Below are positions 1-54,139 of a stretch of DNA of 64,000 nt, in pieces. The position numbers and the translations under genes were made by a program. The stretch is taken from contig CAVWDG010000009.1 in the NCBI GenBank assembly GCA_963753695.1, forward strand, positions 73,975-137,974. Direction: 5' to 3'. Under the pieces are notes generated by a model that made no database searches, had not been told where the DNA came from, and saw only the letters and a list, made by a program, of their open reading frames with translations. This DNA is from an uncultured Actinomycetes bacterium. GTDB taxonomy: Bacteria; Actinomycetota; Thermoleophilia; UBA2241. Within the stretch, counting starts at the first letter, position 1. Each line of letters opens with the position of its first letter.

Positions 1-2130
1 GGTACCAACAGCGAGTTCGGGTTCGACTACCTGCGCGACAACATGGCGATGCGCTTAGAAGAGTGCGTGCAGCGCGGCCACTCCTACTGCATCGTCGACG
101 AAGTCGACTCCATCCTGATCGACGAAGCGCGCACGCCGCTCATCATCTCGGGCGCGCCCGAGACCGCCGCCGGCACCTACCGCGACTTCGCGCGCATTGT
201 GCCGCGCCTAAAACCGGGCGACGACTACGAGGTCGACGAAAAGCAACGGACCGTGTCGGTGACCGAGTCGGGCGTCGCCAAGGTCGAAAAGGCGCTCAAC
301 GTCGACAACCTCTACAAAGACGTCAACGGCGCCCTGGTCAACCATCTCGTGCAGGCCCTGCGCGCCCAGGCGCTGTACCACAACGACAACGAGTACGTCG
401 TCAAAGACGGCGAGGTGCTGATCGTCGACGAGTTCACCGGCCGCGTCCTCGACGGACGGCGCTACTCCGAGGGCCTCCACCAGGCGATCGAGGCCAAAGA
501 GCACGTGCCGATCCGCGAAGAAAACCAGACGCTCGCCACGATCACCCTGCAGAACTACTTCCGCCTCTACGACAAGCTGGCCGGCATGACCGGCACGGCC
601 AAGACCGAAGAAGACGAGTTCCGCACCATCTACGCGCTCGACGTCGTGCAGATCCCGACCAACGTAGAGATGGTGCGCATCGACCAGAACGACTACATCT
701 TCACGACGCGCACCGACAAATACACGGCCGTCGTCAACGACATCGTGGAGCGCCACGAAAAAGGCCAGCCGGTGCTGGTCGGCACCGTATCGGTCGAGGT
801 CAGCGAGCTGCTCGCCACCCTGCTCGAGCGCCGCGGCGTGCCGCACAACGTGCTGAACGCAAAGCAGCACGAGCGCGAGGCCGAGATCATCAAGGGCGCC
901 GGTCAGGCCCACGCCGTGACGATCGCCACCAACATGGCCGGCCGCGGCGTCGACATCAAGCTCGGCGAGGGCGTGCCCGACCTGGGCGGCCTCTACGTGC
1001 TCGGTACCGAGCGCCACGAGAGTCGACGCATCGACAACCAGCTGCGCGGCCGCTCCGGACGCCAGGGCGACGCCGGCGAGAGCCGCTTCTACCTGTCGGC
1101 CGAAGACGACCTCATCCGCCTGTTCGCCGGCGACCGCATGTACAAGGTGCTCAACCGGCTCGGCCCCGGCGAGGGCGAGGCCCTCGAGCACCGCATGCTC
1201 TCGGGCGTCGTCGAACGCGCCCAGAAGAAGGTCGAAGAGCTCAACTTCATGCGCCGCAAGAACGTGCTGCAATACGACGAGGTCATGAACGAGCAGCGCC
1301 GCGTGATCTACGAGCAGCGCGGCCGTATCCTCCAGGGCGAAGACTTCGTCGACCAGGTGCGCGAGATGATCGAGCAGGTCATCGAGAGCACCGTCACGCT
1401 CGCGCTGGCCGACGCCCAGTACGCCGAAGACTGGGACATCGACGCCCTGCTGGTCTCGCTGCGCGCCGTCTACGACCCGTCGATCACGAAGGCCGGCATC
1501 GAGGAGCTCTCGGCGGTCGACGAGGTCGTCGAGCTCGCCGTCGACGATGCCCTCAACCTGTACGACGAGCGCGAGAAGCTGATCGGCGAGGAGCAGATGC
1601 GCGCCGTCGAGCGCGCCGTCATGCTGTCGATCGTCGACGTGCGCTGGAAGGACCACCTGCTCGACATGGACTACATGCAGGAGGGCATCCACCTGCGTGC
1701 GCTTGGTCAGCGCGACCCCCTGGCCGAGTACAAGACCGAGGGCTTCAGCCTGTTCGAGGACATGCTCGGCGGCGTGCGCCAGAGCGTGGTCATGACGCTC
1801 CTCAAGAACTCGCCCGAAGACCTCTCGTACTTCGCCGCCATGACCTTCGACCAGCCCATGCTGGCCATGAACTACACGAGCGGCGACGACCTCGCCTACC
1901 AGACGTCGTTCGCCGGCGCCGCGGTGGCGGCCGGCGCCACCACCTCGACCGGTGGCGGCGACGGCTACAGCTTGCCGGCCGCCGCGCAGGGCGCGCCCGC
2001 CATGGCCGCGCAGTCCGGCGGCGAGTCCTCGGTCGCCGTGCAGCAGCGCCACGTCGAGCAGAAGGTCGGCCGCAACGACCCCTGCTGGTGCGGCAGCGGC
2101 AAGAAGTTCAAGAAGTGTCACGGGGCGTAG
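1..2130 (+). CDS. secA: Preprotein translocase ATPase SecA (5'-truncated by window)
   Basis: Frame 1 open from base 1 (GTNSEFGFDYLRDNM). Motifs IVDEVDSILIDEARTPLIISG, IATNMAGRGVDI, HESRRIDNQLRGRSGRQGD and C-terminal SEC-C motif GRNDPCWCGSGKKFKKCHG. Ends in TAG. Confidence 0.98.
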   Translation, partial: GTNSEFGFDYLRDNMAMRLEECVQRGHSYCIVDEVDSILIDEARTPLIISGAPETAAGTYRDFARIVPRLKPGDDYEVDEKQRTVSVTESGVAKVEKALNVDNLYKDVNGALVNHLVQALRAQALYHNDNEYVVKDGEVLIVDEFTGRVLDGRRYSEGLHQAIEAKEHVPIREENQTLATITLQNYFRLYDKLAGMTGTAKTEEDEFRTIYALDVVQIPTNVEMVRIDQNDYIFTTRTDKYTAVVNDIVERHEKGQPVLVGTVSVEVSELLATLLERRGVPHNVLNAKQHEREAEIIKGAGQAHAVTIATNMAGRGVDIKLGEGVPDLGGLYVLGTERHESRRIDNQLRGRSGRQGDAGESRFYLSAEDDLIRLFAGDRMYKVLNRLGPGEGEALEHRMLSGVVERAQKKVEELNFMRRKNVLQYDEVMNEQRRVIYEQRGRILQGEDFVDQVREMIEQVIESTVTLALADAQYAEDWDIDALLVSLRAVYDPSITKAGIEELSAVDEVVELAVDDALNLYDEREKLIGEEQMRAVERAVMLSIVDVRWKDHLLDMDYMQEGIHLRALGQRDPLAEYKTEGFSLFEDMLGGVRQSVVMTLLKNSPEDLSYFAAMTFDQPMLAMNYTSGDDLAYQTSFAGAAVAAGATTSTGGGDGYSLPAAAQGAPAMAAQSGGESSVAVQQRHVEQKVGRNDPCWCGSGKKFKKCHGA

Positions 2131-51199: not shown

Positions 51200-52618
51200 G
51201 TGACGATCGAAGGACGGGTGCCGACCCGCATGGGCGACGGCACCTTCGTACGCCTGACGCGCAGCGAGATCAAAGCCGATCTCGTGGCCGGGTCAGAGGC
51301 GGCGGCCAAGCGGGCCAAGGTGCCCCCGCTGCACGGACGACGAGCTGGACCACCTGCTCGACATCTACGCCTCGTCGGCGCGCTTCACCGGCGTCGACAT
51401 AGGCGACGAGATCGTGCTCAGCTGCGACGGCACCGGCATGAAGACACACGCCACCCGCATCCAGGACCTGCAGACCTACGAGCAGTGGATGGGCGCCGAC
51501 CTGCTCGAGCTGTGCGTGGGCGACTACTCGCTCAAGGTCGTGCGCACCAACCTCGCCTACGAGGCGCAGTACATGCACGACGCCCAGCTCTGCACGGTGG
51601 CGCCGCTGCAGTACGGCGTGATGCCCAACCTGGGCCTCTACTCCAAGCCCGACGGACCCGTGCGACAACTGGAACGAGCTGCTGCCGCTGGGCCGCATCG
51701 ACGAGGCCCGCGCGTCGCGAAGAAGAGGCCGTCGAGATGGCCGTCGTCGACATGGTCGACCTGGCCGACACGCAGTGACGAGGCCGGCGCCGACGCCATC
51801 GACTGGGACACCACCGGCGCCTCGGGCGACCCCGAGTTCCTGGCCGCGCCTCAAGGCCGACCGCCATCATCCGCGAGAAGTACCCTGACCTTGGCATCCA
51901 GCTCGGCATGGCCGGCGAGTTCGTGCTCGGCATGCACGGCCAGCTCGAGTACGAGGGCGTGCGCCTGGCCGGCCTGTGGCCCAAAGACCAGCTGCTGCTC
52001 GCCCAGAAGGCCGGCGCCACCATGTTCGGACCGGTCGTCAACGTCAACACCGGCAAGACCTGCGCCTGGAACATCGCCCGGGCGATCGCGCTCGTCAAGC
52101 CGTGCATGGACGTGGCCGACGATCCCGGTGCACATGAACGCCGGCATGGGCGTCGGCGGCGTGCCGATGTTCGTGCACCCGCCGGCCGACGCCGTCTGCC
52201 GGGCGGCCAAGTCGTGCGTCGACATCCTGCACGCTCGACGGCTTCTAGGTAGGCTCGGGCGATCCGCACGGCATGCACAGTGCGCACGCGCAGGCGGCGG
52301 GCATGGGCGGAATGCGAGCAGCCGGAGATCTGGTGGCTCGCATGCAGATGACCCGCGGAATGCGTTTGAAAGAGGCCAAAGAGTACGTCGCCGGCAAGCT
52401 CGGCGTGACGCCGTTCGACCTGTCCGACCCCGTCGCCATGACCGACGTGCGCAACGAGTTCGGCTTTGGCCGCATCCACAGCTACGCGATCCGCCAGCCG
52501 CGCGCAGGCCAATCAGATCGAGGCCAAGTTCAACATCGCGCGCGTGCTCGACATGCCCATCAACTGCGTCGAGCGCTTCAAGGAACGTACGACGCCGGTC
52601 GCCGGCGGCGTGCGCTAG
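51200..52618 (+). CDS. mtbB: Dimethylamine:corrinoid methyltransferase MtbB with in-frame amber (putative Pyl); many apparent indels
   Basis: GGGAGGGG SD plus GTG; TRMGDG, PNLGLY..PDGP, LGMAGEFVLGMHG, PVVNVNT, HMNAGMGVGGVPM, LDGF-TAG-VGSGDP..MRAAGDLVARMQ..EAKEYVAGKLG. Confidence 0.88.
52312..52343 (+). promoter_or_regulatory. Candidate PYLIS-like stem-loop 3' of the mtbB amber codon
   Basis: ATGCGAGC-A-GCCGG-AGAT-CTGGT-G-GCTCGCAT, 13 bp including 2 G-U pairs; 63 nt after TAG. Confidence 0.5.
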
Positions 52619-52644
52619 CGAAGGGCACCGATGGGAGGGCGGCG

Positions 52645-54139
52645 ATGATTCGCAATCCACGCGCCGGCGCGCGCAAGAGCGGCGGCTTTCGGCTCGAGGT
52701 GTTCACCGACGACGAGCTGCGCGAGATCCACCTCGCGACGCTCGAGGTGCTCGGCCGCACCGGCGTGTTCGTCGAAGACGACGAGGCGCTCGAGATCTTC
52801 GCCCAGGCGGGCGCCGACATCGACCGCGAGCGTCGCGTCGTCTGCCTGCCGGCCCACCTGGTCGAAGACGCGGTCGACGCCGCGCCCTCCACGGTCGTGC
52901 TCTGCGGGCGCGACCCGGCCAACGATGTGGTCCTAGAAGACGGCCGCGTCGGCTTTACCAACTTCGGCGAGGGCATCCAGGTCGTCGATCCCTACACAGG
53001 CGAGCTGCGCGAGTCGCGCAAGGCCGACGTGGCCGACTGCACGCGCCTGATCGACGCCCTGCCCGAGATCGACGTGGTCGAGCGTCCCCTCGGGGCGCAC
53101 GACGTGCCGCCCGGACACGGCGGCCCTGCACAATGCCGAGGCGATCTTCTCGAACACCACCAAGCACGCCACCATCGGCCCGCTGTCGGGCTTCTGCGCG
53201 GTCAAGATGATCGACATGGCGGCCGCCATCGCGGGGGGCCGCGACAGCTTGCGCAAGCGCCCCATCCTGTCGTTCCTCACCTGTCCGGTGAGCCCCCTCA
53301 AGCTCGTCGCCGACGCCTGTCGCATCATCATCGAAGGGGCCCGGGCCGGAGTGCCGGTCAACGTGCTGTCGATGGCCATGGCCGGCGGCTCGTCGCCGAT
53401 CAACCTGGCCGGCACGCTGGTCACCCACAACGCCGAGGTGCTCGCCGGCATCACGCTGGCCCAGCTCACCGTGCGCGGCGCGCCCGTGATCTACGGCTCG
53501 TCGACCACCGCCATGGACCTGCGCTACGCGAGCGCGTCGGTGGGCAGCCCCGAGTGCGGCATGATCGGCGCCGGAGTCGCCTGCCTGGCGCGCTTCTATC
53601 TGCTGCCCAGCTGGGTCGCCGGTGCGTAGGGCGATGCCAAAGTGGCGGACGCTCAATCCGGTCACGAGAAGACACTCACCAGCCTGCTACCGGCGTTGGC
53701 AGGGGCCAATCTGATCTATGGGCTGGGGATGTTGGAATCGGGCGTCACCATCGACTACGCGCAACTCGTCATGGACGCCGAGTTCGCGCGCATGATCAAA
53801 TTCTGCGTGCCGGGCATCGCGGTCAACGACGCGACCCTGTCGGTCGACGTCATCGCCGAGATCGGCCCGTTCAGCGACTTTCTCTCGCACGACGACACCT
53901 ACCGCGGCATGCGCGGCCAGTCGCGCTCCAAGCTCATCGACCGGCGGGTCCGCGAGGAGTGGGTCGCCGCCGGCTCGACGACGATCTACGAGCGCTCGCG
54001 TGCCGAAGCCTGCCGCCTGCTCGAGACCCACCAGCCGCAGCCCCTGCCCACCGAGGTGGCCGCCGAGCTTGCCGCCATCATCGCGGCGGCCGAACGGGAG
54101 CTCGGGGTGGGGCAGGGCGCAGAAGACCGCGTAGGGTAA
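52645..54139 (+). CDS. mttB: Trimethylamine:corrinoid methyltransferase MttB with in-frame amber (putative Pyl); one apparent indel near 53110
   Basis: [89 protein letters not shown]. Same frame on both sides of TAG; ends at TAA; about 497 codons. Confidence 0.93.
53683..53703 (+). promoter_or_regulatory. Candidate PYLIS-like stem-loop 3' of the mttB amber codon
   Basis: CCTGCTA-CCGGCGT-TGGCAGG, 7 bp stem; starts 54 nt 3' of TAG. Confidence 0.42.

Follow-up and report, generated by a model that had tools for sequence, protein, structure and literature searches.

The present study concerns a window of 64,000 nucleotides (nt) from an uncultured Actinomycetes bacterium, in which two neighbouring methyltransferase genes, mtbB and mttB, each carry one in-frame TAG at the position of pyrrolysine (Pyl; mtbB 52246-52248, mttB 53627-53629), with rare codons and RNA hairpins downstream of both. 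The window corresponds to positions 73975-137974 of contig C9 in a metagenome-assembled genome of 2.13 Mb, 16 contigs and 70% G+C. Relatives of this genome have been recovered from peat, bog and soil, bins from Stordalen Mire and Microflora Danica among them, and are uncultured Actinomycetota that carry the label Thermoleophilia or Actinomycetes. The genes and the codons at their Pyl sites are as follows.

51200-52618, forward strand: mtbB, dimethylamine methyltransferase (Pfam Dimeth_Pyl), read by three-frame translation, GTG start at 51200 and TAG stop at 52616-52618.
52243-52248, forward strand: mtbB codon -1, TTC (Phe), followed by the pyrrolysine TAG at 52246-52248.
52645-54139, forward strand: mttB, trimethylamine methyltransferase (Pfam MTTB), ATG at 52645 and TAA at 54137-54139.
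53624-53629, forward strand: mttB codon -1, GCG (Ala), followed by the pyrrolysine TAG at 53627-53629.

Fragments of mtbB matching PF09505 lie on both sides of its in-frame TAG (C9:125195-126559), the context of which is LDGF-TAG-VGSGDP, and the relatives carry exactly one TAG at the same place. The genome encodes tRNA-Pyl(CUA) (pylT), with PylB, PylC and PylD adjoining and PylS about 5 kb off, and all four proteins score above the NCBIfam cut-offs. Apart from these, the part of the pylT neighbourhood that was inspected contains genes for a radical-SAM protein and a MarR-type regulator, as well as an open reading frame (ORF) without a match; no elongation-factor-like protein was observed among the neighbours examined, beyond which no search for such a factor was made. 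As the first-pass annotation of this DNA had held, TAG is also a common true stop, ending 34% of 1,031 confident ORFs. With one third of its stops being TAG, the genome needs to tell two kinds of UAG apart. The mtbB message itself holds two UAGs 370 nt apart, one for Pyl and one serving as the stop (52616-52618).

First, the codon usage immediately downstream of both TAGs departs from that of the rest of the genome, in the following two windows.

52249-52383, forward strand: rare-codon window of mtbB with low G+C at third codon positions (GC3), 45 codons 3' of the TAG.
53630-53764, forward strand: rare-codon, low-GC3 window of mttB, 45 codons 3' of the TAG.

The rare codons listed by the first-pass annotation are present in both, and GC3 falls to 0.71 (mtbB) and 0.73 (mttB) against a mean of 0.915 for the 1,031 confident ORFs; only 2.2-2.7% of same-size genome windows reach values this low. 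In the homologous 45 codons of this genome, 16 non-Pyl MttB paralogues have a GC3 of 0.89-1.00, compared with 0.75 and 0.73 in the two TAG-bearing mttB genes. At the level of the order, 89 genomes of Thermoleophilia-type Actinomycetota were compared, and matches to the pyrrolysine insertion sequence (PYLIS) models PYLIS_3 and PYLIS_2 of Rfam were observed in 85 and 87 of them, respectively. Our first samples of mttB and mtbB were the top Rfam matches, a choice that favours AT-ending codons, and a sample of 28 mtbB genes from the same genus was therefore chosen by PF09505 protein score to check this bias. In the latter, GC3 in the four 10-codon bins past the TAG was 0.79, 0.87, 0.58 and 0.85, with about 0.94 in the rest of the gene; the dip was unchanged, and ascertainment bias was rejected as its cause. 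For mttB (76 unique relatives), the bins were 0.84, 0.85, 0.75 and 0.86, with 0.93-0.96 elsewhere. Thus, the dip is limited to about 40 codons of genes that are otherwise fully GC-adapted. When columns were screened for a majority codon of less than 15% genome-wide usage, three of 457 were found in mtbB (-1 TTG, +26 GGA, +27 GAT) and seven of 494 in mttB (-2 GGG, -1 TTG, +3 TCC, +11 GGT, +23 TTG, +24 GCA, +33 GGG), and all ten fall within codons -2 to +33. The dip is a loss of third-position C (from 0.56 to 0.37 in mtbB and from 0.57 to 0.45 in mttB); G at this position stays level or gains slightly (0.37-0.42), and the shares of A and U increase three- to four-fold. The rare codons that are kept likewise avoid C: TTG rather than CTG, GGA, GGT or GGG rather than GGC, GCA rather than GCC, and GAT rather than GAC. 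GC pressure wipes out unconstrained synonymous sites, and the remaining A- and U-ending codons are therefore under selection.

Second, the codon just before the TAG is strongly biased. Among 90 unique mtbB sequences, codon -1 was TTG in 72, TTA in 11, CTN in 2 and TAC in 5; the corresponding counts for 76 unique mttB sequences were 58 for TTG, 3 for TTA and 0 for CTN, with a non-leucine codon in 15. Where leucine precedes the Pyl codon, it is encoded by TTG or TTA in 83/85 mtbB, 61/61 mttB and 10/10 mtmB sequences, although these codons account for only 3.9% (TTG) and 0.4% (TTA) of the leucine codons genome-wide. Before the ordinary TAG stops of this genome, leucine is written CTC (16), CTG (11) or, in two cases, TTG.

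Third, a conserved hairpin is located in the mtbB window (hairpin positions are numbered from the T of the TAG as 0).

52310-52345, forward strand: mtbB hairpin, 5' arm 52310-52325 (+64 to +79), loop AGAU 52326-52329, 3' arm 52330-52345 (+84 to +99).

The first-pass annotation had drawn this hairpin at 52312-52343, and the proposal was borne out: in this copy it folds at -22 kcal/mol (z = -3.41, with none of 200 shuffles as good), and in a comparison of all column pairs in the 1,371-column gene alignment it ranks first among 16 conserved stacked helices. RNAalifold, run on 100 sequences from -6 to +119, predicts this hairpin alone. Over the same 100 sequences, 87.4% of the hairpin cells are paired, compared with 80.3% after shuffling (0/500 shuffles as high), and the covariation score of 0.204 lies above all 500 shuffles (0.082); controls slid along the gene are paired in 28-41%. 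Within the (T/A)-A-G-D-L-V-A motif, codon positions one and two account for most of the stem pairs; the remaining four pairs join wobble positions, and all of them covary (4/4). The pair 77-86 is CG in 42 sequences, UG in 34, GC in 11 and UA in 3, and is never unpaired; the pair 74-89 takes five types (94% canonical), 71-92 six (76%) and 68-95 four (83%). The pairing of the A of CGA with the T of GCT emphasized by the first-pass annotation is one of these four (+71 with +92). On a tree built without the hairpin region, the pair 77-86 has undergone at least 14 state changes, always remaining canonical, and the pair 74-89 has undergone 18. The 3,085 control pairs, taken from variable wobble columns in the rest of mtbB, had a canonical fraction of 0.455 on average and 0.844 at most, and none reached 0.94. 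The loop (+80 to +83) reads AGAY across the relatives, and its A is supplied by GGA, a codon of 4% usage that is present in 100/100 sequences.

Fourth, a conserved hairpin was also found in mttB, at a place other than that first proposed.

53695-53710, forward strand: conserved mttB hairpin GUUGGC-AGGG-GCCAAU, loop 53701-53704, +68 to +73 paired with +78 to +83.
53683-53703, forward strand: first-proposed mttB stem CCUGC...GCAGG, copy-specific and not conserved.

The stem at 53683-53703 had to be abandoned: its z-score is -0.25, 76 of 200 shuffles fold as well, and three of its five pairs are canonical in just 18-68% of the 76 relatives (18% for pair 59-73 and 47% for pair 56-76). The conserved helix is the one that overlaps it at 53695-53710, and the A of CTA and the A of GCA are not the pairing bases they had been taken for; in the conserved helix the A of GCA is the first loop base, and the A of CTA has no conserved role. 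The consensus GUUGGC-AGGN-GCCAAY is the longest mttB helix with at least 95% canonical pairing in a whole-gene scan of the 76 sequences, and the hairpin occurs in the minimum-free-energy fold of this copy. Its codons are GCG (76), TTG (73), GCA (76), GGN, GCC (76) and AAC (74), of which TTG and GCA are rare. The hairpin 17-mer was found in 82 of the 89 genomes and its reversed control in none, and every cross-checked match sits at +66 of a PYLIS_3 match. Compensatory change was also observed. In seven sequences from divergent paralogues, Asn AAC to Ser AGC goes with Leu TTG to CTG, so that U69-A82 becomes C69-G82; TTG with AAY was counted about 83 times, CTG with AAC four times and TTG with AGC never. 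In two sequences, GCA to GGA is accompanied by GCC to CTC, which restores the pair 73-78. The U69-A82 pairing with AAY explains the retention of the rare TTG. The loop A is invariant throughout the divergent paralogues. The similarity of the distances from the two TAGs, given by the first-pass annotation as 54 and 63 nt, is truer of the corrected hairpins, which start at +64 or +68 in mtbB and at +68 in mttB.

Several other candidate elements were considered and set aside. An internal sigma-54 or sigma-70 promoter at TTGGCA has -12 and -10 elements that, judged by eye, are unfitting or unconserved. A restart at GUG with GGAGAU as its internal Shine-Dalgarno sequence is conceivable but accounts for neither the covariation nor the mttB motif. 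In both genes, sequence about 85-90 nt downstream is complementary to the flank of the UAG (mttB 53624-53633 with 53715-53721; mtbB 52246-52250 with 52328-52332); the mttB partners are UUGUAGG and the CUA-containing UCUACGG, and in mtbB, UAGGU pairs with AYCUG overlapping the hairpin loop. These long-range helices, which would sequester the UAG (mttB -3..3/88..94; mtbB 0..4/82..86), are conserved but consist of preferred codons, have no informative covariation and are of a size expected by chance. Complementarity between tRNA-Pyl and the hairpin loops was also considered, and no convincing match was observed.

The same layout extends to a third family. Pyl-type mtmB genes, of which 10 usable sequences were available, show a longer GC3 dip (0.66-0.84 over about 70 codons), with AAT, NTA and TTG as invariant rare codons in the low-GC3 stretch (loci L217-L227). 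The structures in mtmB are candidates: CAGCU-GAAUG-AGCUG at +90 to +104 and a large fold from about +3. In the RNAalifold prediction for the mtmB genes of the relatives, this large domain, starting about 3 nt past the UAG, is reminiscent of the classical PYLIS. Pyl-type mtbB, mttB and mtmB have separate Pfam models (PF09505, PF06253 and PF05369), and the pattern is thus shared by the three unrelated families of Pyl methyltransferases in this order.

Non-Pyl paralogues have neither the rare codons nor the hairpins, and this holds even for close ones with the GHEKTL..AL.GA motif in common. Six non-Pyl homologues (L254, L260, L264, L270, L273 and L275) with an A-L-A/S-G-A/V-N/D motif do not use TTG at +23, and their hairpin is disrupted. 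In the 40 codons after the site, A- or T-ending codons number 21/240 in these six genes (1-6 each) and 87/600 in 15 divergent Pyl-type copies, a modest contrast. The control of non-Pyl MtmB homologues comprised three to four genes. Three of the six (L254, L260 and L264, at G034:C4:43482, G042:C3:64022 and G034:C4:60332) are close homologues of Pyl-type MttB without a pyrrolysine codon, reading AGG-L-GDGK or G-G-L-(G/S)-D where Pyl-type genes read A-G-L-Pyl-G-D (AG-L-Pyl-GDSK), and their leucine is CTC. They could be recent losses or a Pyl-independent sister group, and serve as a natural control for Pyl-linked signals.

The two sites are members of known Rfam families, in the case of mttB by sequence alone.

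52246-52345, forward strand: match to Rfam RF02509 (PYLIS_2), 65.7 bits against a gathering threshold of 36, E = 1.3e-13, model positions 1-100.
53627-53726, forward strand: match to Rfam RF02510 (PYLIS_3), 72 bits against a gathering threshold of 38, a sequence-level match.

RF02509, "pyrrolysine insertion sequence mtbB", is a computational prediction built from alignments of the 100 nt after the UAG (Have et al. 2013; PMC3639795). As in that family, the match here starts at the Pyl UAG, and the 3' hairpin of the model (73-92) is the core of the mtbB hairpin (52318-52337), which can form in this copy with one non-canonical pair. In contrast to the model, the stem is longer (up to 16 pairs), and the positions 77-86, unpaired in the model, form a pair in 100% of sequences, with four different base combinations. 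The 5' hairpin of the model (7-37) is not kept in this clade; it has six non-canonical positions here and was absent from both RNAalifold (100 sequences) and the whole-gene helix scan. For RF02510, "pyrrolysine insertion sequence mttB", the match likewise begins at the Pyl UAG but reflects coding-sequence similarity: the model pairs are mostly non-canonical in this copy, both longer stems of the consensus structure carry non-canonical pairs, and the conserved hairpin at +68 to +83 lies outside the model structure. The source paper of PYLIS_3 had found no common structure in mttB.

The classical PYLIS begins a few nt past the UAG and spans about 85 nt. The elements described herein resemble it, as defined in mtmB1 of Methanosarcina barkeri (RF01982; Theobald-Dietrich 2005; Longstaff 2007), in being intragenic mRNA structures 3' of a methyltransferase Pyl UAG, for which a role in favouring Pyl insertion was proposed. 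They differ from it in belonging to different gene families (mtbB and mttB) and in consisting of small distal hairpins, a codon at -1 and a C-poor window; RF01982 has no match in the window, and PF05369 has none in the genome. The conserved helices start at +64 (mtbB) and +68 (mttB), and none closes near the UAG except the unsupported mttB helix -3..3/88..94. Compared with the bacterial selenocysteine insertion sequence (SECIS), the likeness lies in a coding-sequence hairpin 3' of a recoded stop with conserved loop bases. The SECIS, however, follows its UGA at a distance of about 11 nt and binds a dedicated factor, SelB; the hairpins here are 64-68 nt from the UAG and do not qualify as SECIS elements, and to our knowledge there is no Pyl-specific elongation factor. 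In Escherichia coli, the last codon with its P-site tRNA and the +4 base affect the competition between release factor 1 (RF1) and suppressor tRNAs, and the fixed UUR (R, purine) before the UAG together with the G at +4 resembles such stop-codon context effects. In contrast to general context effects, the context here persists at a single class of natural recoding sites even though GC pressure is strong, and the ordinary TAG stops of the same genome lack it.

The copy of mtbB in the window is frameshifted, which bears on the origin of the rare codons. Called against two intact relatives of 93% identity, it has nine insertion events of its own (eight of one base and one of two), and mttB has one extra base of its own near 53113; the sites are 51332, 51660, 51717, 51777, 51856, 52118, 52233, 52500, 52625 and 53113. 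Every one of these events is an insertion of 1-2 bases, mostly a G added after C, and there are no deletions. Other members of the genus have an intact mtbB with exactly one TAG, and several further MttB genes of this assembly are also split. Because all of the events are insertions relative to the intact relatives, the frameshifts suggest a systematic error of base calling, which may arise at a modified motif, and not decay of the gene. Pseudogene decay as the source of the rare codons was ruled out, since the intact relatives share the pattern and the indels of this copy are only insertions.

Taken together, the rare codons and hairpins are almost certainly RNA features that are selected at the nucleotide level and tied to Pyl-type genes. 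The first-pass annotation had gone further and proposed a recoding signal like PYLIS; the Rfam scores, the nucleotide-level selection and the link to the TAG stand in favour of that proposal, and the mttB stem on which it partly rested does not. We infer a role in UAG decoding because three families converge on the layout, the non-Pyl homologues lack it and the genome has to distinguish Pyl UAGs from its many UAG stops. Herein, we propose a signal composed of three parts, which selection would maintain in every Pyl-type methylamine methyltransferase gene of the order. First, a UUR leucine codon occupies the P-site position just 5' of the UAG in most copies. Second, over a window of about 40 codons past the UAG, C-ending codons are replaced by rare A-, U- and G-ending ones. 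Third, a small hairpin with a 4-nt loop starting with AG lies about 64-99 nt (mtbB) or 68-83 nt (mttB) past the UAG. When the ribosome meets the UAG, these elements most likely act in cis and would favour Pyl-tRNA(CUA) over RF1, so that these UAGs would be read through and the ordinary UAG stops would still terminate, as a bacterial counterpart of the PYLIS. On the sequence data, we put the chance that cis elements favour Pyl insertion over termination at these UAGs, a step that we infer, at about even. A more specific version can also be entertained tentatively, with odds somewhat short of even: a dedicated Pyl mark in bacteria that use UAG as a stop, consisting of a UUR codon in the P site, a C-poor window and an AGRN-tetraloop hairpin about 70 nt downstream, which would raise Pyl insertion at these sites only and would owe its presence in the three families to convergent origin or retention.

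Several observations weigh against a recoding signal. Both copies in the window lack a UUR codon at -1 (TTC in mtbB and GCG in mttB), the mtbB hairpin of this copy has one A.G mismatch (52320/52335), and the 120-nt windows of this copy alone are not significantly above shuffles (z = -1.6 and -1.2). A depletion of C alone is not predicted by a pure structure model. The ribosome covers about 15 nt downstream of its A site; hairpins 64-68 nt away are therefore untouched by a ribosome with the UAG in its A site, the geometry of SECIS elements and readthrough stimulators is inapplicable, and the distance does not fit that of the usual stimulators. In addition, the archaeal PYLIS is regarded as dispensable, and earlier work on it was negative or weak. 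In Methanosarcina, the enhancement reported by Longstaff et al. in 2007 was modest, and in the same year Namy et al. reportedly saw none in E. coli.

The C-specific depletion suggests that the elements might instead protect the transcript during slow decoding of the UAG and leave decoding itself unchanged. As long as a ribosome waits at the UAG, the transcript between it and RNA polymerase lies exposed; C-poor, folded RNA would resist Rho loading (polarity) or RNase there, and the hairpin might pause RNA polymerase and keep transcription and translation coupled. Such protection would explain why the dip is a loss of C alone and why the conserved rare codons all avoid C; the window of about 120 nt is about the size of a Rho loading site, and the distance of the hairpin from the UAG poses no problem. 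However, the mtbB hairpin is also part of an Rfam consensus built largely from methanogen genes, and archaea lack Rho. The C content is normal again after about 45 codons, so that a longer stall would expose C-rich RNA, and both the UUR upstream of the UAG and the invariant loop A are left unexplained. We consider transcript protection unlikely.

Real signals in RNA or translation that are unrelated to the UAG, such as a slow-codon patch that aids folding of the active-site segment, an element governing mRNA stability, or a sequence bound by a regulator or small RNA, could also lie near the TAG simply because pyrrolysine sits in the most conserved part of each enzyme. Indeed, the hairpins coincide with the best-conserved stretches of the two proteins (AAGDLVA in MtbB and ALAGAN in MttB), most of the mtbB stem is already fixed by the first two positions of the codons in its motif, and the hairpins are too distant for direct contact with the decoding ribosome. 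Such a coincidence would nevertheless need an element in three families within about 100 nt past the same rare codon, together with a rare leucine codon before it; moreover, the six non-Pyl homologues with a closely similar motif lack both the TTG and an intact hairpin, and the 16 paralogues do not have low GC3. Signals of this kind are held to be improbable as the explanation. Finally, it is very improbable, and already contradicted, that the features have no function and represent leftovers of a low-GC donor, a mutational quirk, pseudogene decay or an artefact of Rfam-based choice, as the many frameshifts in this copy and the first samples of top Rfam matches might suggest, since the dip is confined to about 40 codons of GC-adapted genes and appears in the protein-score sample and the intact relatives, wobble-wobble covariation with zero unpaired states does not arise from composition alone, and the frameshifts resemble base-calling error.

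Whether an mRNA signal directs pyrrolysine insertion has been debated for twenty years, and a 2025 PNAS paper states that the mechanism of targeted insertion "is not known". The present findings argue against the textbook view that pyrrolysine is inserted without an mRNA signal, and a dedicated cis-signal, if true, would overturn the view that no mRNA context directs its decoding. High-GC genomes act as a magnifier in this respect, as the A- and U-ending residue singles out a few defined nucleotides upstream and downstream of the Pyl codon in three unrelated families, and an old question is thus reduced to a short list of testable mutations. The composition evidence, the controls with non-Pyl paralogues and the UUR at -1 are new, as are the mttB hairpin with its compensatory change and the AG-first tetraloop common to both hairpins. 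These results are relevant to the annotation of Pyl genes in metagenomes and to the engineering of site-specific amber suppression. The expression of Pyl-type mttB and mtbB by peat Actinobacteriota has already been published (PMC10805028), and the genes themselves are therefore not new.

Two further features of these genomes were observed. The methyltransferase genes are greatly expanded: some 25 members of the MttB superfamily are encoded in the 2.1 Mb of this genome, only two of them with a TAG, and in the relatives the numbers per genome reach 12 for Pyl-type mtbB and 19 for PYLIS_3-type mttB matches, along with many TAG-less MtmB-family genes. In addition, tRNA-Sec (UCA) and tRNA-Pyl (CUA) are encoded on one contig (C11:348142-348239 and C11:39920-39992, respectively), and the organism is therefore likely to use the 21st as well as the 22nd amino acid.

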